Shown here in pieces: positions 5,736 through 60,649 of a stretch of DNA of 64,000 nt (within the stretch, counting starts at the first letter, position 1; each line of letters begins with the position of its first letter). The position numbers and the translations under genes are program-made. The notes below the pieces were generated by a model. It was not told the origin of the DNA and ran no database searches. It saw only the letters and a list, made by a program, of their open reading frames with translations. Location of the stretch: positions 1,088,001 to 1,152,000 of the forward strand of contig OY762721.1 of the NCBI GenBank assembly GCA_963666345.1, given 5' to 3'. The DNA comes from Desulfatiglandales bacterium. GTDB lineage: Bacteria > Desulfobacterota > DSM-4660 > Desulfatiglandales > Desulfatiglandaceae.

Positions 5736-5834
5736 TGTTGATCCTCCTCTTACATTTTTTTGATTAGGCAGTCATGATTCAAGAGCCATTATGCTGCCGT
5801 CATTATCCCGCCTCTCGGATTACCCGATCAAAGA

Positions 5835-6935
5835 TCAGTCCTCCTCACGCAGCAGGTTTATAAACTCTGTCGTTGTATATATCTTGAGCTTCTGTTTTCT
5901 CAGTTTAGCATTCGCAAGGTTATGCACGCAGGAGTTACATTCGGTAAGAAGGACCTCCGCCCCTGCCTCCTCGGCCTCCTCAAGCCTTCGCCTTGCCATT
6001 GCGATAGAGTTTGCCGCATAGGCTCCTCTTACACCACCTCCCGCCCCGCAGCAAAGGGCCTTTTCATGGTGATGTCTCATCTCCACGAAATTGGGGGCTA
6101 TCTTTCGTATCGTATCACGCGGCTCTTCATAGATACCGCAATGCCTTCCAAGATCGCAAGGATCATGGTAGGTCACTTTCTTATCGGTCTTGAATCCGAT
6201 ATCGATATCCTTCAGGAACTGGGAAAGATGAATGCATTTCACTCCCTTTTCCTTAAGTTCCGCATATTGTTTCTTGTTGTTGAATGTACGGGAACAATAC
6301 GGACAACCGGTTATGACGGTCTTTGCCCCGGTTGCCATTATAAGATCTATATTCGTCCTTACATGCTTCTCATTTATGGGATGCCCCACATCCTCGAGCA
6401 CACCGCTGCAGCAGACCTCATCTATAAGAGTGTAATCCACCTCAAGATAATCAAGGAGATCGAGTGTTGCCGTTGTCCTCTCGTCCTCTCTGTAGGAGCC
6501 TACGCATCCTATGAAAAAAACATATTCCGCTTTTCCGTTTCGCTCTCTCTCAAAATCTTCAGGTTCGTCCTCGGCATATATATTATCGTGCTCCTTAAGC
6601 ACCTTGTTCATTCCTGTAAATGCAGGATGACATGACCCTATATGCACCATGTCTTTTCTGGCCTGCTTTATAATCTCAGGCACTTCCACCCCTGATGGAC
6701 AGTTTTCGGCACAGGCCCCGCATGTTGTGCACTGAAAAAGGGTTTCAATCAGCTCGTCGTTCAGATCAAGAGTGCCGTCCATTACCTCCTTGAGAAGCAG
6801 CATCTTTCCCCTTGCGTTGTAGGCGGGCCTGAGAGTAGCCCCGAATACCGGACATACCGACTGGCAGAAGCCGCATCTTGAACATTGGAGTACCTGATCG
6901 CGAAATTTTCTTTCAAAATCATATTTGGCTTCCAT
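5835..6935 (-). CDS. GlcF-like Fe-S oxidoreductase subunit
   Basis: CSRCGFCQSVCP, CTTCGACAENCP, two CCG-type domains; start placed at MEAKY after GAGGG. Confidence 0.85.
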   Translation of the reverse strand: MEAKYDFERKFRDQVLQCSRCGFCQSVCPVFGATLRPAYNARGKMLLLKEVMDGTLDLNDELIETLFQCTTCGACAENCPSGVEVPEIIKQARKDMVHIGSCHPAFTGMNKVLKEHDNIYAEDEPEDFERERNGKAEYVFFIGCVGSYREDERTTATLDLLDYLEVDYTLIDEVCCSGVLEDVGHPINEKHVRTNIDLIMATGAKTVITGCPYCSRTFNNKKQYAELKEKGVKCIHLSQFLKDIDIGFKTDKKVTYHDPCDLGRHCGIYEEPRDTIRKIAPNFVEMRHHHEKALCCGAGGGVRGAYAANSIAMARRRLEEAEEAGAEVLLTECNSCVHNLANAKLRKQKLKIYTTTEFINLLREED

Positions 6936-6936
6936 G

Positions 6937-8319
6937 TTATCCCTCATCAAGCGCCATTTTCCCTGGATTAAGAATATTTTTGGGGTCAACCATCCTCTTG
7001 ATACTTCGCATTACATCCATGGCCACATCGTCATGTTCCCAGCACATGTAGCGTGCCTTCTGCATTCCTATGCCATGCTCTCCGGTCAGCGTGCCGCCCA
7101 GCTCAATCGCCATTCTGAAAAGATCATCGCTGGCAGCCCTTTTGGCCTTTACCTGATCCTGGTCATATCCGTCGTATACAAACTGTGGGTGAAGGTTTCC
7201 ATCCCCTGCGTGACCATATGTTGCTATCATTATGTTATGTTTTTTGGAGATCTCCTGTATGCCCTTCAATGCTTCGGCCAGTCTGCTCATAGGAACCGTG
7301 ACATCCTCAAGCACCTGGTGGGTCTTGAGCCTGGCAAGGACCGCGTAAGCCGACTTTCTGGCCGCCCACAGACCGGCTGCCTCATCCTTGGACTGGGCCT
7401 GTTTAATCTCTTTGGCGTTGTTGGCCTTGAAGACCTCCAGGACCTTTGACATCTGATAATCGGTTTCTTCCTGGGTATAACCGTCGGTCTCCGAAAGCAG
7501 AATGGCATCAACCTCCGGAAGGTTCAGGTCCGTGTTCTGGTTTATGGCCATTATGGCCTCTTTTCCAAGGATCTCAAGAACCGCGGGCAGGATGCCGCTG
7601 TGCATAACCTGGCTTACCGCCCTTCCGGCATCCTCCACATCATCGAAGGTACCGAGCGCGGTAGTGGAAGCGGTCGTCATCGGATTTATCTTAAGCGTAA
7701 TTTCCGTGACAACGCCAAGGGTACCTTCAGAGCCTACAAAGAGTTTAGTGAGGTCGTAGCCGGACACACTCTTGATGCACTGAGATCCTGTCTTCATGAT
7801 TCGTCCGTCAGGAAGGACAACCTGAAGGCCGAGCACATAATCCCTTGTTGTGCCGTATTTGGCCCCCCTTACCCCTCCCGCGTTGGTGGCGACATTTCCG
7901 CCCAGGGTACAAACCTGACTGCTTGCGGGATCAGGGGGGAAAAAGAACCCGTAGGGTGCTATCGCCCTTGCCAGATCGTCATATACCACACCAGGTTCAA
8001 CCACGACCAGACGATCTTCTATGCTTATCTTCTTGATCCTGTTCATGTGATTGAGATCAAGAACGATTCCTCCCTTAAGCGGTATGGCCATACCGGTAAG
8101 GCCAGTCGCCCCCCCCCTCGGTATTACGGGCATCTCTTCCTTGTTGGCCAGCTTCAGGATCTCCGAGACATGCTCGACCGTCTGGGGCCACACACCACAG
8201 GAAGGCCTGTGAGTGTATTCGCTTGCATCGTAAGAATAGGAGACCATATCTATCAGGCTGTCATTGTAGTTCTTCTCCCCTACAATCTCAATCAAGGCCT
8301 TTTTTAGTCTGTCTTCCAA
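6937..8319 (-). CDS. GlcD-like FAD-linked 2-hydroxy-acid oxidoreductase
   Basis: PRGGATGL, PPDPASS, GGNVATNAGG, GYDL..LFVGSEGTLG, GHAGDGNLH, GEHGIG, NPGK; TTG start after AAGGAGG. Confidence 0.9.
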   Translation of the reverse strand: MEDRLKKALIEIVGEKNYNDSLIDMVSYSYDASEYTHRPSCGVWPQTVEHVSEILKLANKEEMPVIPRGGATGLTGMAIPLKGGIVLDLNHMNRIKKISIEDRLVVVEPGVVYDDLARAIAPYGFFFPPDPASSQVCTLGGNVATNAGGVRGAKYGTTRDYVLGLQVVLPDGRIMKTGSQCIKSVSGYDLTKLFVGSEGTLGVVTEITLKINPMTTASTTALGTFDDVEDAGRAVSQVMHSGILPAVLEILGKEAIMAINQNTDLNLPEVDAILLSETDGYTQEETDYQMSKVLEVFKANNAKEIKQAQSKDEAAGLWAARKSAYAVLARLKTHQVLEDVTVPMSRLAEALKGIQEISKKHNIMIATYGHAGDGNLHPQFVYDGYDQDQVKAKRAASDDLFRMAIELGGTLTGEHGIGMQKARYMCWEHDDVAMDVMRSIKRMVDPKNILNPGKMALDEG

Positions 8320-10368: not shown

Positions 10369-10384
10369 AGCAAGGCGTGTGCCA
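10369..10384 (-). promoter_or_regulatory. sigma54 (-24/-12) promoter of the cytochrome-lipoate operon
   Basis: Minus strand reads TGGCAC-ACGCC-TTGCT. Confidence 0.8.
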
Positions 10385-50414: not shown

Positions 50415-50430
50415 TGGCACGTTCATTGCT
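50415..50430 (+). promoter_or_regulatory. sigma54 promoter of amtB-glnB-glnD
   Basis: TGGCAC-GTTCA-TTGCT. Confidence 0.85.
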
Positions 50431-52101: not shown

Positions 52102-54723
52102 ATGTCATCCTTTGCATCAGCCAGACTGGAGAGTTCGAAAGAACAGTTGGTTTCACTGTTTTCTGAAGGTGATATCTCCGAGACATTTCCTCAGAGTTAT
52201 ACCGAACTTGTAGACCGGTATTTTCGTTCTTTTCTTGAGGAAAGCGAGACCGGGCACAGGCTCTTCAGGGGGAAAAAGCCCTTCGCCCTTGTCGCCGTTG
52301 GAGGATACGGACGCAAGGAACTTTGTCTTAATTCGGATATCGATATACTCATATTGTTCAAAGGCAGGCTGCCTTCCACGGCAAAAAAACTGGCCGAGGA
52401 GCTATTTTATCCTCTGTGGGATATGGGGATGGATCTGGGTTATGGAGTTCGCTCCATCAGAGACTGCATCCGTCTGGCCGCAGATGACTTCGAAGTACTT
52501 ACATCCCTTATGGATGCCCGGTTCGTGGGGGGCGATTCACCCCTTTTTCTTTCTCTTGTTGAATCGGTTCAGGACAAAATAATCAAGAAAAAGGCCGGGG
52601 CCCTCAAGATATGGTTTGAGGCCAAAAACAAGGGCAGGATGGATATTTTCGGTGACGCAAGCTACATGCTTGAACCGAACCTGAAGGAAGGCATCGGCGG
52701 ACTCAGAGATTATCACCAGATCCTTTGGCTTTCAAAGGCATTTTTCAAGATTCGCACGCCAAGAGACCTTGAATTCGCAGGCATCCTTTCACATAAGGAA
52801 TATGAGGCACTCAAGGAGCAGCTCAATTTCATATGGCTTGCAAGAAACCGGCTTCATCACCTTTCGGGAAGGAAAAACGACAGGCTCGCATTTGAATACC
52901 AGGAAGAGATCGCAAAAGAGCTGGGATATAGAAACAAAAGGGGCTTTCTTGGCGTGGAACAGTTTCTTGGAGACCTTCATGCCTGCATGGGTGCGATCAA
53001 GTCATTGCGCCGTTCTTTTATCAATACCCAGCTTCCCGGAAACAGGATGAAGAGCCGTATCCTGCCCTTTCCCTTTCCAAAAGGAATTCATATCTCTCAG
53101 GGCGAACTTGAGTTTGACTCGGCTACCGCGATAATCAAAAATCCGATGCTGCTTCTTGAAATCTTCGAGCAGGCAGGCGCACTTTTATTTCCCCTTTCGA
53201 TGGAGGCAAAGAGGCTTGCAAGGGAATTCAGATATCTGGTGGACGAATCATTCATAAATTCGAGGGATGCGGCCATAAGCTTCGGCTCCCTCCTTGAAAA
53301 CAGATACGCTTCGCATGCCCTTGATCAGTTATTCGAGACCAATCTCCTTGAGGCCTTTATACCTGAGTTCGCTCCTGTAAAAGACAGGGTTCAGTTCGAT
53401 GCCTATCATACATATCCGGTTGGAAGGCACCTGCTGGAGGCCGTAAAAAATCTCAAGGAACTGCCCCGGCGAAAAGAGCTGCTCCTGTTGGAAATTTATT
53501 CCAATCTCCCGGATAAGGAGGCTCTTATACTTGCCGCCCTTCTACACGATATTGGCAAAACCGGTAAAGATCATTCTTCAAGAGGAGCGGCTCTTGCGGC
53601 AAGGATATTGAACCGGATGGGCTATCCGAAAAAAAAAGTAAAAATGGTCTCATCGCTGATCAGGAACCACCTTCTTCTGGCAGAGACGGCCACCCGCAGG
53701 GACCTGAATGATGAGAAGATCATTGTCGACTGTGCCGCCATGATAGGGGACGTGGAAACACTCAAGATGCTTTACCTTCTGACCTGGGCCGATTCCAACG
53801 CTACAGGGCCGAGGGCCTGGAATGACTGGGTGGCGAACCTGGTGGAAGAGCTTTTCTTCAAGGTGCTTCATGTCCTGGAAAAAGGAGAGCTGGCCAATCC
53901 CGACAACGCCCGCAGGCTGAGGCGCAAACAATCGCAGATAGCCGGGCTTATGTCTGAAGAAATTCCCGAATCACGTCTGAAAAATTACTTCGAACTTATG
54001 CCCCCCCGATACCTTCTCGATTCAGGCGCCGCGGATATATCAAGACACCTGGAGGCCGTTTTAGAACTGGAAAAACGATTTAAAACAGAGGGCGGCAATG
54101 CCTTTTCCTTTTCCGTAAAGAAAGAAGGCACGGAGGGTTTCTGGCAGATAACTCTCATGGCCGCGGACAGGCCCGGTCTTTTTTCCGATTTTTCAGGCAT
54201 CCTGGCCTTAAATAACATAAATATCTTTTCATCCTGCGTCTATACATGGAGAAACGGAATAGCCGTCGATATATTCAGGACCGGCAACCTCCCTGATCCC
54301 TTGCATATTGAAGATACATGGGAAAGGGTCCAAAGGGATCTGAAGATGTCCCTTGAGGGAAACCTTTCGATCAGGAAAAGGCTCGCAAAAAAGGCATCGC
54401 CTTCCCTGTTGAGTGTTTCAAAAGTTCCTTCGCGTGCGCCGCAGGTATCGGTCGACAACAATTCGTCGGATTTTTTTACCATTATCGAAGTCTTCGCGGA
54501 CGACAAACCGGGGGTACTCTTTCAGCTCAGCAGGGTCCTTTATGAACTGGGCCTTGATATCAGGGTAGCCAGGATAGCCACAAAGGCGGACCAGATAGCG
54601 GACATCTTTTACGTGCTCGACATGGAAGGTCAGAAGGTGGATGAGGAAAATGACCTTGCAAAAATCAAAGAGACACTGCTCTCAATGCTTGAAAAATCAA
54701 TCGAAACTCCGGCCCGGTCCTGA
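52102..54723 (+). CDS. glnD: [Protein-PII] uridylyltransferase
   Basis: AVGGYGR..SDID, EPNLKEG.GGLRD, LLHDIGK, two ACT domains (DRPGL, DKPGVL). Confidence 0.95.
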   Translation: MSSFASARLESSKEQLVSLFSEGDISETFPQSYTELVDRYFRSFLEESETGHRLFRGKKPFALVAVGGYGRKELCLNSDIDILILFKGRLPSTAKKLAEELFYPLWDMGMDLGYGVRSIRDCIRLAADDFEVLTSLMDARFVGGDSPLFLSLVESVQDKIIKKKAGALKIWFEAKNKGRMDIFGDASYMLEPNLKEGIGGLRDYHQILWLSKAFFKIRTPRDLEFAGILSHKEYEALKEQLNFIWLARNRLHHLSGRKNDRLAFEYQEEIAKELGYRNKRGFLGVEQFLGDLHACMGAIKSLRRSFINTQLPGNRMKSRILPFPFPKGIHISQGELEFDSATAIIKNPMLLLEIFEQAGALLFPLSMEAKRLAREFRYLVDESFINSRDAAISFGSLLENRYASHALDQLFETNLLEAFIPEFAPVKDRVQFDAYHTYPVGRHLLEAVKNLKELPRRKELLLLEIYSNLPDKEALILAALLHDIGKTGKDHSSRGAALAARILNRMGYPKKKVKMVSSLIRNHLLLAETATRRDLNDEKIIVDCAAMIGDVETLKMLYLLTWADSNATGPRAWNDWVANLVEELFFKVLHVLEKGELANPDNARRLRRKQSQIAGLMSEEIPESRLKNYFELMPPRYLLDSGAADISRHLEAVLELEKRFKTEGGNAFSFSVKKEGTEGFWQITLMAADRPGLFSDFSGILALNNINIFSSCVYTWRNGIAVDIFRTGNLPDPLHIEDTWERVQRDLKMSLEGNLSIRKRLAKKASPSLLSVSKVPSRAPQVSVDNNSSDFFTIIEVFADDKPGVLFQLSRVLYELGLDIRVARIATKADQIADIFYVLDMEGQKVDEENDLAKIKETLLSMLEKSIETPARS

Positions 54724-54884
54724 AAAAAAGCGCCTATCGTTCGTAAGATATCCGTTCATTTCGCAAATACGGTTAAAAGGTTCCTGCAAGGGATGCGACA
54801 ATACCAGGGGCAGGCGATCATGTCCTCCCCTGCCACCGGGGATCAAACAACTCGACAATGCCGGCCGAATCGCCTTTAACCTGT

Positions 54885-55079
54885 AAAGCAATTTCTGTCC
54901 GTCGGGCCAGCGCTTTGCCTTCAGCTTCATTCAACCCCACCTCACGGTGACGCAGTTGCCGTTCAGCCAACACTTCCCCTTGACGGGCTGACGGGCGCGC
55001 GTATAGGACTTGAGTCCATACATACTTCTCGATACTTATTGAGTCTCACCTACAAGTGGATGCGCCCTGCCGGGCGCAC
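54885..55079 (-). mobile_element. 5' fragment of a class IIC group II intron (no RT, truncated)
   Basis: Starts GTGCGCCCGGCAGGGCGCA right after a terminator; domain I-like blocks GGTGAGA..AGTCC, GAAGTGTTGGCTGAACGGCAA, GAAGCTGAAGGCAAAGCGCTGGCCCGACGGACAGAAAT. Confidence 0.8.
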
Positions 55080-55111
55080 AAACAAAAAGGCCGCAGGCAA
55101 AGACTGCGGCC
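55080..55111 (-). terminator. Intrinsic terminator of glnK-amtB
   Basis: GGCCGCAG-TCTTTGC-CTGCGGCC-TTTTTGTTT. Confidence 0.85.
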
Positions 55112-55126
55112 TTGATAAATTATTGA

Positions 55127-56458
55127 TTACTGCTGCGCGTAAGTGGATATCTCAAAGTCGGGATACGCGCTTCCGCCATGCTCGCCCAGATCAAGCCCTT
55201 CGGCCTCTTCTTGAGGGCCTGCCCTGAGGCCTATCGTCTTATTTACCACCTTGAAAAGGATAAAGGCGGTTGAAAAGGTCCATATAAAGCATGTGACAAT
55301 ACCCAGCACCTGCACGCCTATGATGGATGCCGAGGTGCCTCCCATATTGAAAATCCCCGCTGCAAGAGTTCCCCAGGCACCGTTTACACCATGAACCGAA
55401 ATGGCGCCTACAGGGTCATCCACTTTTACCTTTTCAAAAAAGAGCACCGACAGCACCACAAGTATTCCTGCCACGGCTCCTATTACAATCGAACTCCGAG
55501 GAGACACCGAGGCGCAGGGGCTCGTTATGGCAACAAGTCCTGCAAGCGCGCCGTTCAGACTCATTCCCACCTCAGGTTTTCCGAACTTTATCCAGGAGGT
55601 GAACATGGCAAACACAGCGCCTGTGGCCGCTGCCATATTGGTGTTTACGAATATCATGGCGATGTCCTTGTTTGCAGCCGTGGTGGAGCCGGGGTTAAAG
55701 CCGAACCATCCGAGCCACAGGATAAATACACCTAATGCCGCAAGCGGCATGTTGTGCCCCAGGATCGGCCTTATGCTGCCGTCTTTTCCGTATTTTCCTA
55801 GCCTCGGCCCCAGAACTATGGCGCCTGCAAGGGCGGCCCAGCCCCCGACCGAATGAACCACGGTTGAGCCTGCAAAGTCGATAAAGCCGAGGTTTTCAAG
55901 CCAGCCGCCCCCGTTAAAAAGGCCTCCCCAGGCCCAGCTCCCGAATATGGGATATATGAGCCCGCTTATAAAGATGCTGTAAATGAGATAGCCCGAGAAC
56001 TTGGTGCGCTCAGCCATTGCCCCTGACACGATGGTTGCGGCGGTTGCGGCAAAGACCACCTGGAACATCCAGAAGGCCAGCACCCAGGGATCTCCGCCCG
56101 GGGCAAAATCACTCAGAAAGAATCCCGAGGTACCGAACCACCCTGTCTTTGAAACCCCGAACATAAGGCCGAAACCGAGCGCCCAGAAGGCAAGCGAGCC
56201 CATTGAAAAATCCATGAGGTTTTTCATCATGATGTTTATGGCGTTTTTCGCCCTTGTAAAACCCGCCTCAACAAGAGCGAATCCCGCCTGCATGAAAAAC
56301 ACCAGACAGGCGGCCACCAGGGTCCAGACATAATCGGCATGGGTCTGAACCAGTGCTATGGCCTCTTTGTTGGATAAAACCGTGGGCGCCTCATCCCCCG
56401 CGAACAGGCCCGCAGGCACGCCCAAAATCAAAACAACCATTAAAAGCAAAAATTTCAT
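55127..56458 (-). CDS. amtB: Second ammonium transporter
   Basis: FFMQAGFA, KNLMD, GAMAER, DFAGSTVVH, WFGFNPGS, DDPVGAISVHG. Confidence 0.95.
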   Translation of the reverse strand: MKFLLLMVVLILGVPAGLFAGDEAPTVLSNKEAIALVQTHADYVWTLVAACLVFFMQAGFALVEAGFTRAKNAINIMMKNLMDFSMGSLAFWALGFGLMFGVSKTGWFGTSGFFLSDFAPGGDPWVLAFWMFQVVFAATAATIVSGAMAERTKFSGYLIYSIFISGLIYPIFGSWAWGGLFNGGGWLENLGFIDFAGSTVVHSVGGWAALAGAIVLGPRLGKYGKDGSIRPILGHNMPLAALGVFILWLGWFGFNPGSTTAANKDIAMIFVNTNMAAATGAVFAMFTSWIKFGKPEVGMSLNGALAGLVAITSPCASVSPRSSIVIGAVAGILVVLSVLFFEKVKVDDPVGAISVHGVNGAWGTLAAGIFNMGGTSASIIGVQVLGIVTCFIWTFSTAFILFKVVNKTIGLRAGPQEEAEGLDLGEHGGSAYPDFEISTYAQQ

Positions 56459-56476
56459 TTTACCTATCCTCCGTTT

Positions 56477-56953
<477 letters not shown>

Positions 56954-57128: not shown

Positions 57129-57779
57129 TTAAAATTCAATCAGATCTATCGCCGTAAGGGTTGTGCGGTTCCTTGTTCCAGGTGCATTAACAAGATGCCA
57201 GGCAACATACTGCTCTGAATAAAGCCGGTCAGACATCCCGTCCACCGGCACTATAATATTCAATTTCCGCATCGCCGCCCCGATGGCTGTACCCAGAACT
57301 GCTCCGTTCGCAGCAGTGCCGACAATAATGACGGTCTTGATGCCTTTATCCGATAAAATCTTTTCCAGATCCGTGCCGTAAAATTTGTCTACCGAGGATT
57401 TGACTATTTTCTCCCCCTTTAACGGAGCGACCTCTTTTAAAATGGCTTCCGGCGTCCCTTTGCTGGTCAGGCTGTAGACGACAGGTATTCCCACAGCCCT
57501 CGCCTTTGTGACAAGTGTCTTGATTTTAGGAACAGAAGCTATACATCGAGGCCTTCTCTCTGAATTACAGGTTCGCTTTTCAATGTCCAAAACCAAAAGG
57601 GCCGTAACCTTGGAGTCCACTTTGACCGGTTTGATCGCAGGGGCCTCCGGCGCTTTGACGCTGGTCCATTCGTCAATAATCGTTTCATCTGCCCGAACAG
57701 GGCCTGTAAAAAACAAAAGAACGCCGAATAAAACGGTTCCCTTCATAATCATTTGTTGCATGTTTCCTTTAATAGTCAT
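57129..57779 (-). CDS. Isochorismatase/cysteine hydrolase family protein with a predicted signal peptide
   Basis: TALLVLD, K..VDKFYGTDL..L..GI.TVIIVG; hydrophobic N-terminus ending PVRA; GGAGG RBS. Confidence 0.8.
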   Translation of the reverse strand: MTIKGNMQQMIMKGTVLFGVLLFFTGPVRADETIIDEWTSVKAPEAPAIKPVKVDSKVTALLVLDIEKRTCNSERRPRCIASVPKIKTLVTKARAVGIPVVYSLTSKGTPEAILKEVAPLKGEKIVKSSVDKFYGTDLEKILSDKGIKTVIIVGTAANGAVLGTAIGAAMRKLNIIVPVDGMSDRLYSEQYVAWHLVNAPGTRNRTTLTAIDLIEF

Positions 57780-58013
57780 TTCTCTTAATCCTCCGATTGT
57801 TTTAATGCTGAGAAATGAAATGACACTATTCACGCATTTGTTTTCTGAAGGAGCTTTTGGATAACCAATCAGCATCGTGTTTCCTGATTGTAACTTCTTG
57901 GCCCAGCCGTGAGGACAAATAGGCTTGTGCTATAATGATGCAGTATTCAAATGGCAAGGCCACCGTATTCTATTTTAGACCACAGTAAGCAGATTTTTGA
58001 GGTATGATTAAAT

Positions 58014-58712
58014 TCACGGCACCTCCCAGAAGGGGCCTAGCTTCATGCCTTTAATTTTGTCGAGAAGTTCGTTTCTGAGAATAGGTCTGTTAGATATAAA
58101 GTCAGGATCCAGACGCCTGCGCATGTGTTCACATGAAAACAGACTGTGCAGATCGGCAAGAGAAATGATTCCATTTTCAGTACTTGGATCGAAAAGCACC
58201 CAATTACGAACATGTTCTTCCGACCGGAAGAAGTTCATGGTGCTTCAGGCGAAACTTATGTCATCGTACCACTTATTGAAAGGAACGGCCACATATCCTA
58301 CGATACCCTCAGGATCAACATTCAATATCTCACCATCTCGCATCTCAACACTTATCGGCTCCCCACAGTGCATGCAAACCGTATCGATCTGAACTTTTTT
58401 ACCTGGAAAAAGCCAGCTAACTGCCAGCGACTCGAAGGCTCACTGGCCAAACCACTTCTGCTCACCGTCCACAGTGATGGGATACTGGTTGGGAAGGTTG
58501 TTGAAAGGGGCCAGGGAAACGATGAGATCTGTTTTTGGAAAAACCCAGCCTGGAAGTATCTCTGAAAAAAGGGCCTGAACGGCTTTTCGGCCGTTCTCTA
58601 TGGAGACCCCAAGTGCCTCAGCTACTTCAGTGAAAAATGGGGCTTTCCCGGTTTCGACAAGACTTTTCATAATGCAGTGGTAGGTTTTGTCTAAGGTTGT
58701 AGGTTCTGACAT
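58014..58712 (-). CDS. MerB-like (organomercurial lyase family) protein with two in-frame TGA codons, probable selenoprotein of 232 aa
   Basis: One continuous frame: ..KWFGQ-TGA(58440-58442)-AFESLAV..CMHCGEPI..ISFA-TGA(58245-58247)-STMNFFRSEEH.. Both TGAs fall at MerB catalytic Cys positions. Confidence 0.85.
58208..58236 (-). promoter_or_regulatory. Putative bacterial SECIS after the second TGA
   Basis: TGA-AGCACCAT-GAAC-TTCTTCC-GGTC-GGAAGAA-CAT-GTTC. Confidence 0.7.
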
Positions 58713-58751
58713 GGCTATTTACCTCCATTTATTATTCTAGTATGAACTCAA

Positions 58752-58767
58752 AGCAATATATGTGCCG
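58752..58767 (-). promoter_or_regulatory. sigma54 promoter of the MerB-like gene
   Basis: Minus strand reads CGGCAC-ATATA-TTGCT, about 40 bp upstream of the ATG (GGAGG RBS). Confidence 0.7.
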
Positions 58768-58894
58768 AACAGGCCTTGCCTTAATTAATAAGAAATCAAT
58801 GCCATTGTATTCAGTAGTATAAGGGCGAATTTTAGGGTAGCATAAAAATTAATTAATATTATCAACGCAATAACTGGACTGGCAATATTGCAAG

Positions 58895-60649
58895 TCATAA
58901 TGGCATTTCTGCCGTTTTTAGCTTTCTGTAAATTGTTGCAGGGTCCATCTTGAGGAATTTGGCAGCCTGCTTTACGCCACCATGTTTTTTAATTGCCGTT
59001 TTTAGCAGCGTTATCTCAAACTGTCTGACGGCATTCTTGAAGGAGCCCGCTTGCTGGATAGGATAATTGAGGAAGTCCTGTCTAAGCTCTGAGGGTAAGT
59101 CCTCCATGATGATTTCATCATGTGGGGTAACCAAAACGAGTCTTTCAATTAAATTGATCAGTTCTCTGACATTGCCGGGCCATTGAAAACCTATTAGATA
59201 ATCGATTACTTCTCGAGAAAAAAAGGCATTTTTATCATATTTGAGATTGGTCTTTTCGAGAAAGAAATTGATCATATGAAGAATATCGTCCGGTCTTTCC
59301 CTAAGAGGTGGGATAAAAATGGGAATGACGTTTATGCGAAAATAGAGATCCTTCCTGAAAGTTCCCTTTTCCACCATGCCTTTTAGATCACGGTTGGTAA
59401 TAACGATGAGCCGAACGTCAACCTTCTTGGGCGTAACACTTCCAATCCTTACGATCTCAAGGTCCTGAATCGTCCTTAAAATCTTGACTTGAAGGTTTTG
59501 GGGCATCTCTCCTATCTCATCCAGGATTAGGGTTCCTCCTTCGGCAGCTTCGAAAAGGCCTTGTTTGCCCTTTGCATCGGCACCGGTAAAGGCACCATGC
59601 TCGTAGCCAAAGAGCTCCGACTCCAGAAGATTTTCAGGTATGGCCCCACAGTTTATTTTGAGCAGGGGGCTGCTGTTGCGCGTTGAGTGCCTGTGAATAT
59701 AGTTGGCAATAACCTCTTTGCCTACTCCTGTCTCGCCCGTTATGAGCACAGGGGCATCCACCTGAGCAACACGCCCGGCCAGTTCAAAGGCTTGCCTGAT
59801 TGCCTTGGATTCAGCTACAATCTGGGCCTTTTCAAAGTGGTGCGTCTTAAGCCTTTCTATCTTTTCATGATATTGACTGTAAGGCCTTTTAGATTCAATG
59901 TTTTTACTTGATAGCCGCCTGATATCGCTTAGTTCCCTGACGTTACTGACAACCATGGTGATATCGCCGTTGTCATCAAATATCGGAGTTGCAGTGACAA
60001 GGGTCTCTTTTCCAGTGAACCATCTTTTCTGTAGAGTGAGTGTCCGCTTTTCCTTGAGTACCATTTTGGTTGCTGACCGGTTTGAAAAATACCCCTCCGT
60101 TTCCAGTTCAGCCACATTCTGTCCCAGGACCTCTCTGGCCGATATACCAGTAATCTTCTCCCAGGAGGGATTAACGCGTATTATGTTGCCTTCACCGTCG
60201 GTGATAAAAAAACCGTCGTAGGATGAATCAATAATCGCAACCATCTCTTCAATCATGTGGCGGCAGTCTTCACATTTATGGATATTCTCTTCAATTTCTG
60301 AGAAATCTTGAAGAATCGTCACCACCTTGATAAGCGATTCATTTTCTAGGATAGGGATCTGATTGACAACAATAGTACGGTCATCCCATTCGACTCTTTT
60401 CTCTTTCTCAAGTTTTACTCTTAACTGAAGATCCTGGAAGTCCTTCCAGATTTCAGGGATAACCTTGGAAATATTTTTCCTTTCCAGTTCCTCGGCTTTC
60501 AGCTTTAGTATTTTTTGTGCTTCAGTATTAAAAAATGCAATCAGGCCCTGGGGGTTAGTTATAATTATACCCTTGGGCGGTAATTCAAGCATCTTCTTGT
60601 ATGTGTCTTGCTCACTTTGAAGTATGTGATTTGATAATTGCAAAGACAT
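58895..60649 (-). CDS. PAS-PAS sigma54-dependent transcriptional activator
   Basis: GETGVGKE, ESELFG, GAFTGA, LDEIGE, WPGNVREL, C-terminal HTH. Confidence 0.95.
   Translation of the reverse strand: MSLQLSNHILQSEQDTYKKMLELPPKGIIITNPQGLIAFFNTEAQKILKLKAEELERKNISKVIPEIWKDFQDLQLRVKLEKEKRVEWDDRTIVVNQIPILENESLIKVVTILQDFSEIEENIHKCEDCRHMIEEMVAIIDSSYDGFFITDGEGNIIRVNPSWEKITGISAREVLGQNVAELETEGYFSNRSATKMVLKEKRTLTLQKRWFTGKETLVTATPIFDDNGDITMVVSNVRELSDIRRLSSKNIESKRPYSQYHEKIERLKTHHFEKAQIVAESKAIRQAFELAGRVAQVDAPVLITGETGVGKEVIANYIHRHSTRNSSPLLKINCGAIPENLLESELFGYEHGAFTGADAKGKQGLFEAAEGGTLILDEIGEMPQNLQVKILRTIQDLEIVRIGSVTPKKVDVRLIVITNRDLKGMVEKGTFRKDLYFRINVIPIFIPPLRERPDDILHMINFFLEKTNLKYDKNAFFSREVIDYLIGFQWPGNVRELINLIERLVLVTPHDEIIMEDLPSELRQDFLNYPIQQAGSFKNAVRQFEITLLKTAIKKHGGVKQAAKFLKMDPATIYRKLKTAEMPL

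Follow-up and report, generated by a model that had tools for sequence, protein, structure and literature searches.

A probable double selenoprotein of the MerB fold, encoded with two in-frame TGA codons in a Desulfatiglandales bacterium and its relatives

We analysed a stretch of 64,000 nucleotides from a Desulfatiglandales bacterium (contig OY762721.1 of assembly GCA_963666345.1, positions 1,088,001 to 1,152,000; this whole stretch is referred to as the window, and coordinates below are counted within it). Its minus strand carries, at 58017-58712, a gene that ordinary translation breaks at two TGA codons. When both are read as selenocysteine (Sec, U), the 232-residue product is predicted to be a MerB-fold protein whose three catalytic positions hold Sec, Glu and Sec. 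The parts of the gene, including two hairpins resembling the bacterial selenocysteine insertion sequence (SECIS), are as follows.

58722-58726, minus strand: Shine-Dalgarno sequence GGAGG, 9 nt 5' of the ATG
58017-58712, minus strand: coding sequence of the putative MerB-like double selenoprotein, 232 codons, translated with TGA as U
58440-58442, minus strand: TGA codon 91, predicted selenocysteine 1, counterpart of MerB Cys96
58431-58433, minus strand: Glu94 codon (U-x-x-E), counterpart of the MerB proton donor Asp99
58412-58428, minus strand: SECIS-like hairpin 1, GCUGGC / loop AGUUA / GCUGGC, nt 15-31 from the U of UGA-1
58365-58376, minus strand: CxxC pair Cys113/Cys116, CMHC at this locus and CLDC in most relatives
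58245-58247, minus strand: TGA codon 156, predicted selenocysteine 2, counterpart of MerB Cys159
58215-58232, minus strand: SECIS-like hairpin 2, (U/C)UCUUCC / GGUC / GGAAGA(A/G), nt 16-33 from the U of UGA-2
58014-58016, minus strand: true stop codon, also TGA, without a SECIS-like hairpin at the right distance

A first-pass annotation, made by a model from the letters of the window, had proposed that the two TGAs are the sole interruptions of a 232-codon frame, and translation of the minus strand confirmed this: codon 91 (58442-58440) and codon 156 (58247-58245) are the only breaks, with no frameshift and no other stop. The mechanical list of open reading frames (ORFs) likewise places the 90-residue ORF (58440-58712) and the 74-residue ORF (58014-58238) in one frame with 64 open codons between them, and the motifs quoted at the time (WFGQ-U-AFE, CMHCGEPI and FA-U-STMNFFRSEE) are all present in the translation. 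The product is laid out as a winged-helix-like N-terminal part, the MerB core and a C-terminal helical extension of ~40 residues. Start codon, ribosome-binding site and C-terminus are conserved among relatives, and a GGAGG-like site lies 5' of the aligned ATG in nearly all of 30 of them. The terminal TGA differs from the internal pair: folding of the 62 nt that follow from it gives no stem at nt 15-33 (z = -1.6), and 25 of 29 full-length relatives have TAA or TAG at the same end position.

Assignment to the MerB fold comes from profile, sequence and structure comparisons. With TGA translated as U, residues 72-191 of the product score 84.8 bits (E 6.2e-24; gathering score 27) on Pfam MerB (PF03243), the profile check that had been suggested for it, and a genome-wide search with Pfam MerB finds this gene as the only one with a MerB domain in the 4.16-Mb genome. 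A phmmer search against chains of solved structures matched only MerB2 (5C17, E 6e-9) and MerB, and in these alignments U91 falls on C96, E94 on D99 and U156 on C159, as anticipated by the proposed U-x-x-E plus second U; C96, D99 and C159 are given as the active-site residues of MerB in the available part of Haft and Gwadz (bioRxiv 10.1101/2022.07.06.499078). The same comparison makes Cys113 the equivalent of MerB Cys117 and leaves Cys116 without a MerB counterpart. An AlphaFold2 model built from a 26-sequence alignment has a mean pLDDT of 95.0 and a pTM of 0.89, and all 11 Foldseek matches to the PDB at E<=0.001 are MerB or MerB2 (TM 0.55-0.71, the best at about E 1e-10). Weaker Foldseek matches begin at E 0.2; these are to winged-helix DNA-binding domains and extend over the N-terminal part only. 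Within the family the whole MerB core is conserved, the region of the substrate pocket included.

The two-TGA pattern recurs in relatives and, by comparison of their genes, is far beyond chance. A search of the same order gave matches in 38 of 201 genomes, and from the 30 loci kept, whose genes were extracted by script, TGA is found at site 1 in 30/30 and at site 2 in 29/29, the remaining copy being truncated where its contig ends, without any other stop and at 41-86% identity. A sample covering the phylum had matches in 49 of 401 genomes, 38 of them with two-TGA copies, and a scan of species-representative genomes returned at least 573 related stretches. Loci kept from these last two sources form a set of 91, which includes some of the same genomes as the same-order set, and both sites are TGA in every one of the 91. 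The homologues with TGA at both sites that the first-pass annotation had called for thus exist in number. Residue 94 is Glu throughout the 91, through GAA in 70 and GAG in 21, and because the codons are mixed, selection must be acting on the residue; Cys113 and Cys116 are also Cys in all 91, again with mixed TGT and TGC codons. Around the two sites the pattern is U-x-x-E for the first, and Ala or Ser precedes U156 in 29/29 relatives. The best 80 species-representative loci carry names from Desulfobacteraceae, Desulfobacterales, Desulfosarcina, Desulfatitalea, Syntrophaceae/Syntrophales, Smithella, Syntrophobacteraceae, Desulfarculales and Desulfomonile tiedjei, with a few metagenome-assembled genomes (MAGs) labelled Dehalococcoidia, Chloroflexia, Poribacteria or Abyssobacteria. 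One Desulfobacteraceae-type MAG (locus L054) holds two double-TGA copies in tandem, at 5763-6452 and 6643-7341, followed by an amidase gene.

Each internal TGA is followed by a hairpin whose apical loop lies 21-26 nt from the U of UGA. For hairpin 1 the loop in relatives is mostly GGUCA or GGUCU, giving a consensus fold GCUGGC-(G/A)GU(C/U)N-GCUGGC; where site 1 is TGA, 99 of 103 unique sequences form all six pairs, but only 6 of 57 do so where it is a Cys codon, and there both the residues and their codons are free to vary. Hairpin 2 at the locus, CUCUUCC-GGUC-GGAAGAG, has a folding energy of -23.3 kcal/mol (z = -3.84) and none of 200 shuffled sequences was as stable. It was surveyed in 136 unique 42-nt windows from 194 occurrences, nine further loci giving no match to the regular expression, mostly where a contig end cuts them. 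Pairs 17-22/27-32 are formed in 136/136 of these unique windows and the loop is GGUC in 135/136. Compensatory changes are seen at pair 21/28, where C-G becomes U-A in eight windows, at pair 22/27, where C-G becomes A-U once by two synonymous substitutions, and at pair 16/33, with C-G in 80 windows and U-A in 25. In a codon alignment of 30 genes the synonymous-codon entropy is ~1-2 bits along the gene and approaches zero only at codons 95-99 and 155-165, and the F-R-S-E codons of the hairpin 2 region are invariant. In the SECIS of Escherichia coli fdhF the essential G23/U24 lie at the same spacing, within a loop that contains GGUC. An Rfam scan of 57950-58800 gave no match to a curated family at E<=1. 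Taken together, the sequence data show a stem-loop under selection at the RNA level after each UGA, and on this evidence each UGA is recoded through its own SECIS inside the coding sequence, read by the SelB and tRNA-Sec of the host.

The genome has what such recoding would use. It encodes a tRNA-Sec (74.6 bits against a gathering score of 47), and SelA, SelB with its wing domain and SelD were found as well, so that the look for selA, selB, selC and selD recommended at first pass turned up all four. SelD (L011, G000:C1:620342-621268) is itself a selenoprotein with one in-frame TGA (GSG-U-ASK); a hairpin lies ~18-32 nt after its UGA, a distance similar to that of the hairpins in the MerB-like gene. 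Among the carriers of the gene in the phylum sample, 36 of 39 have SelA and the other three, all draft genomes, have SelB, a test of low power given that 371 of the 401 genomes in this sample have SelA. TGA is also the commonest ordinary stop, ending 666 of the 1637 mechanical ORFs of at least 300 codons in the genome, and because it is the commonest terminator of long ORFs and ends the MerB-like gene itself, TGA has not been reassigned.

Relatives in which Cys takes the place of Sec point the same way. In a collection of database proteins, 73 relatives could be aligned. Of these, 34 (among P0003-P0037) have Trp at both sites, most simply understood as TGA printed under a code in which it means Trp, on contigs of ~1-2 kb; another 29 have Cys at site 1 and end exactly before site 2, at ~155 residues. 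P0022 and P0075 are Cys/Cys, and more distant Cys/Cys paralogues with C-x-x-E were found at L250 and L251. The exceptions in the collection are a Leu at site 1 in a 139-residue fragment and, at site 2, a Pro and an Ile in entries that align poorly or are shifted. We also recovered 80 metagenome loci of the Cys-first type (L169-L248): 72 are Cys/TGA, four are TGA/TGA and four end before site 2, so that site 2 is TGA in 76/76 loci that reach it, and the Cys/TGA frames run on past the TGA to a homologous C-terminus. The search for Cys homologues urged by the first-pass annotation therefore yields Cys at site 1 in 72 loci and at both sites in the four Cys/Cys proteins named above.

These Cys/Sec forms make up a sister clade of the double-TGA family. 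They are 41-60% identical to it and of the same length, with the same Glu and, behind the TGA of site 2, the same hairpin 2 with a GGUC loop, and 71 of 80 loci keep the CxxC pair; they differ in having a Cys codon at site 1 and in lacking hairpin 1. No description of this clade was found in the literature searched. A FastTree phylogeny of 173 unique sequences (109 U/U, 60 C/U and 4 C/C; an aligned length of at least 195 residues was required), rooted on the distant Cys/Cys paralogues, gathers most C/U forms into one clade (support 0.91), which also takes in one U/U, and nests one C/C among the U/U forms. As the deep nodes are weak (0.45-0.51), we claim no direction for the change between Sec and Cys. 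A single decayed copy was also seen (L249, G515:C14): its codon 23 is TAA, Glu94 has become Gln and site 2 is Val, and site 1 is still TGA.

The claim that both TGAs encode Sec is thus upheld by the machinery, the conserved columns, the hairpin after each TGA and Cys homologues for both sites, and we regard it as very nearly certain that the gene makes a real double selenoprotein.

The surroundings of the gene were examined for hints of its regulation and partners.

58753-58766, minus strand: sigma-54-type -24/-12 element GGCAC-N5-TTGC, 41 nt upstream of the ATG
58877-58896, minus strand: 20-bp near-palindrome GACTTGCAAT/ATTGCCAGTC, read from the sequence, ~110 bp upstream of the -24 element
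58895-60649, minus strand: sigma-54-dependent activator with PAS sensor domains (Pfam Sigma54_activat, PAS, HTH_8), directly upstream
57129-57875, minus strand: isochorismatase-family hydrolase with an apparent signal peptide, downstream across a 142-nt gap
10370-10383, minus strand, and 50416-50429, plus strand: further exact matches to GGCAC-N5-TTGC

The element at 58766-58753 fits the -24/-12 consensus for sigma-54, and exact matches to GGCAC-N5-TTGC number three in the window compared with 0.37 expected. The near-palindrome, which overlaps the stop codon of the upstream activator gene, may be an enhancer site, and the PAS activator is a possible local regulator; element, palindrome and activator together look like a local inducible module. 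Sigma-54 control as a trait of the family was rejected from its occurrence in 1/30 loci. Between the selenoprotein gene and the downstream hydrolase the scan found no terminator-like site. Farther out, one flank of the locus has glnD, amtB and glnB, and the other a branched-chain amino-acid ABC transporter. The nitrogen-regulation cluster occupies 52102-56944, with glnD on the plus strand and amtB and the P-II gene on the minus strand; in its longest form the P-II ORF is extended by 43 residues at the N-terminus, probably through a mis-start.

Around 17 related loci viewed at +-8 kb, acyl-CoA dehydrogenases occur in 5/17, with acyl-CoA ligases, electron-transfer flavoproteins, amidases and hydrolases also present, and no mer, sao or hgc genes. 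At +-3 kb around 80 loci the commonest neighbours are a pair, a CCG-domain protein and an FAD-linked oxidase, in 5-6 of the 80. In neither set do the loci share a partner, and a conserved operon was accordingly rejected; merA, merT and merR were absent beside all 17 and 80 loci. Since no neighbour is conserved, the context gives no hint of a metal substrate.

The most likely function, by analogy with MerB, would be that of a stand-alone diselenolate lyase of organometal(loid) compounds or of a binder of soft metals. In a lyase, the selenolates of U91 and U156 would grip the soft metal(loid) in an organometal(loid) compound and Glu94 would protonate the leaving carbon, a protonolysis of the carbon-metal bond; Cys113-x-x-Cys116 might afterwards receive the metal, or return a U91-U156 diselenide to its reduced state. 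The protein would act alone, without MerA, MerT, MerR or SAO partners, as a housekeeping enzyme of detoxification or scavenging in anaerobic bacteria of the Desulfobacterota type, and its gene appears to be driven here from a sigma-54 promoter beside a PAS-domain activator. Such chemistry has a precedent in that selenoamino acids and a selone-based mimic of MerB cleave the C-Hg bond chemically, according to the available part of PMC10114901. We consider an intact, SECIS-recoded, double-Sec enzyme of the MerB fold that works as a stand-alone organometal(loid) lyase to be the best explanation overall and hold it with some confidence. For carbon-metal(loid) lyase chemistry taken by itself the balance is near even, tilting slightly in favour, and methylmercury or another organomercurial is a doubtful candidate for the physiological substrate.

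Several observations weigh against this explanation. Hg-Se bonds are very strong, and release of product from a diselenolate would be hard, which favours binding over turnover. The scores on the MerB equivalog models are well below their cut-offs (38.5 against 193 and 34.5 against 200 for NCBIfam NF009710 and NF033555), and the best NCBIfam match is to SaoL (NF040728), at 43.4 bits against a cut-off of 140 (E 3e-11). The whole genome has no MerA over the cut-off, no MerT and no merR, nor an HgcA over the cut-off; the absence of mer and Sao-type partners that had been remarked on for the window extends to the genome. No neighbour family recurs in more than six of the 80 loci at +-3 kb, and the sigma-54-type element is confined to the one locus among 30 homologous ones. 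In the phylum sample HgcA is found in 20 of 39 carriers compared with 101 of 362 non-carriers (tabulated by hand), a partial association that relatedness could explain, because related genomes are not independent.

Because of the strength of the Hg-Se bond and the lack of a MerA-like acceptor, a binding or redox role is kept as the main rival. Here the double selenoprotein would not be a lyase but a stoichiometric scavenger or chaperone of soft metals (Hg, Cd, Cu, Ag), or would cycle a diselenide between U91 and U156, or a selenenylsulfide, together with the CxxC, the fold serving as a scaffold only. Besides the missing MerA-type acceptor and the lack of a conserved partner, an additional conserved CxxC is a usual mark of sites for redox chemistry or metal transfer; MerB itself binds other metals and turns into a copper binder by one residue change (bioRxiv 10.1101/2022.07.06.499078, available part), and known selenoproteins are mostly redox enzymes, at least in the part of PMC9312934 available. 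However, the proton-donor position is Glu in 91/91 loci by way of both codons, which a binder or redox protein would not obviously need, and the whole MerB core is maintained together with the region of the substrate pocket. We therefore rate the non-lyase role as unlikely, though it deserves to be taken seriously, and retain the lyase as the preferred reading.

The remaining alternatives concern how the gene is read and to which family it belongs. Reading of the TGAs as Trp or Cys, by near-cognate suppression or by a local change of code might be suggested by the 34 database proteins with Trp at both sites, but those entries come from the ~1-2 kb contigs, and TGA is the most frequent normal stop of a genome with full Sec machinery and terminates this very gene. 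The sites moreover exchange only with Cys codons, and the hairpins sit at fixed distances with a conserved GGUC loop, hairpin 1 being lost where the codon is Cys; such read-through is very improbable. A pseudogene or an assembly error, with two nonsense mutations in a decaying merB-like gene, would account for the three fragments that mechanical reading yields, and one relative, in G515, has truly decayed. That copy shows what real decay looks like, unlike the gene studied here, and over 100 copies, with identities as low as 41%, are broken at these same two TGAs and nowhere else, with start codon, ribosome-binding site and C-terminus kept, so that this alternative is hardly credible. It is also most improbable, scarcely more credible than decay, that the gene is a known SaoL dislocated from its SAO operon. 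SaoL is the closest NCBIfam model and also has Sec at the C159-equivalent site (in the available part of its description), but the 43.4 bits reached here compare with 140.3 for a true SaoL of the same phylum (L253, used as control), and the tested U/U, C/U and C/C members of the family all stay at or below 53 bits on this model. SaoL is further described, in that same part, as keeping Cys99/Asp102 and a CU dipeptide, where the locus has U, E and A-U. SaoP is below its cut-off in the genome (131.8 against 295), SaoC was not found in a search that matched no control genome either, and the genome has the one MerB-domain gene only.

Our data point to a real, widespread and apparently uncurated double-selenocysteine branch of the MerB superfamily, in which MerB-like selenoproteins were already known in the form of SaoL. 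Selenoprotein tables have a single MerB-like entry, with one Sec, and it is now equated with SaoL (PMC9312934 and PMC13188914, in their available parts). A supplement of 2016 (file 4 of PMC5029168) has an entry 'Organic mercuric lyase MerB2' with 17 selenoproteins in 17 organisms, given without sites or accessions, and members of the double-TGA family may be among those 17. MerB is absent from the main text and four supplements of PMC2398784, PMC13326102 makes no mention of a two-Sec MerB-like protein, and the full-text literature searched, with Haft and Gwadz covered as a preprint, yielded no description of such a protein or of this stand-alone family. NCBIfam release 20.0 likewise has no model that claims the double-TGA protein.

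If correct, the interpretation would add to the known selenoproteins a family in which both metal-site ligands are Sec, each with its own in-frame SECIS. The MerB-fold gene is widespread, being found in Desulfobacteraceae, Syntrophales, Syntrophobacteraceae, Desulfarculales, Desulfomonile and some Chloroflexota-type MAGs (the at least 573 stretches noted above). The Cys/Sec sister clade without hairpin 1 would then be a natural experiment on the gain or loss of a SECIS along with its UGA. Candidate substrates would be methylmercury or methylated species of arsenic, tin or lead, and two selenolates would serve extreme affinity at trace concentrations in the environment. The available part of PMC10114901 describes mer-independent demethylation in anoxic habitats as poorly understood and MerB homologues as frequent in anaerobes; that the protein is the missing mer-independent catalyst for carbon-metal(loid) cleavage without MerA in sulfate-reducing and syntrophic anaerobes is, in our estimate, a long shot. 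Ordinary annotation likely calls the gene and its relatives fragments or pseudogenes. Protein-based merB surveys would not see a gene that shows up in pieces broken at the TGAs or with Trp in their place, and metagenomic merB surveys of anoxic sediments and soils would be blind to it because gene callers fragment it. A similar fate is reported for SaoL, which is routinely mis-annotated as truncated (Haft and Gwadz, bioRxiv 10.1101/2022.07.06.499078, available part).

Among known proteins, MerB (plasmid R831b; 3F0O/3F0P/3F2F) and MerB2 (5C17) share with the double-TGA family the fold, the Pfam domain and the three catalytic positions, and in MerB, too, an N-terminal helical domain precedes the core. 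The family differs from MerB in having Sec for both ligand cysteines and Glu for Asp99, an extra Cys three residues past the Cys117 equivalent that completes the CxxC, and the C-terminal extension of ~40 residues, at an overall identity of ~20%. MerB proper (EC 4.99.1.2) was rejected as an identification on the sub-cut-off scores, the Sec/Glu/Sec set in place of Cys96/Asp99/Cys159 and the lack of mer genes. The selenoprotein forms of HgcA and HgcB offer a looser parallel, as proteins that handle mercury with Sec in the same kinds of anaerobes (as far as the available part of the source goes), while their fold and reaction are unrelated to those of a MerB-like protein.

The closest parallel is SaoL, a MerB-like protein from anaerobes with Sec at the ligand equivalent to Cys159, described in the available part of bioRxiv 10.1101/2022.07.06.499078 as having a single Sec in a CU dipeptide, Cys99 and Asp102 kept, and a place in a nine-gene SAO operon. 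The comparison with SaoL drawn by the first-pass annotation holds as an analogy; membership does not, since the protein fails the SaoL model and lacks the CU motif. Two single-Sec MerB-like genes of the same phylum (L252 in G586:C1 and L253 in G561:C24) have C-x-x-D, with T-U at site 2. Of the two, only L253 scores as high as the SaoL cut-off, and L252 may be yet another Sec-containing MerB-like lineage. Set beside SaoL as described in that part of the preprint, with its one Sec and its nine-gene operon, the double-TGA family is distinguished by two predicted Sec residues, in Q-U-x-F-E and (A/S)-U-S-T-M, and by a gene that stands alone in variable contexts.

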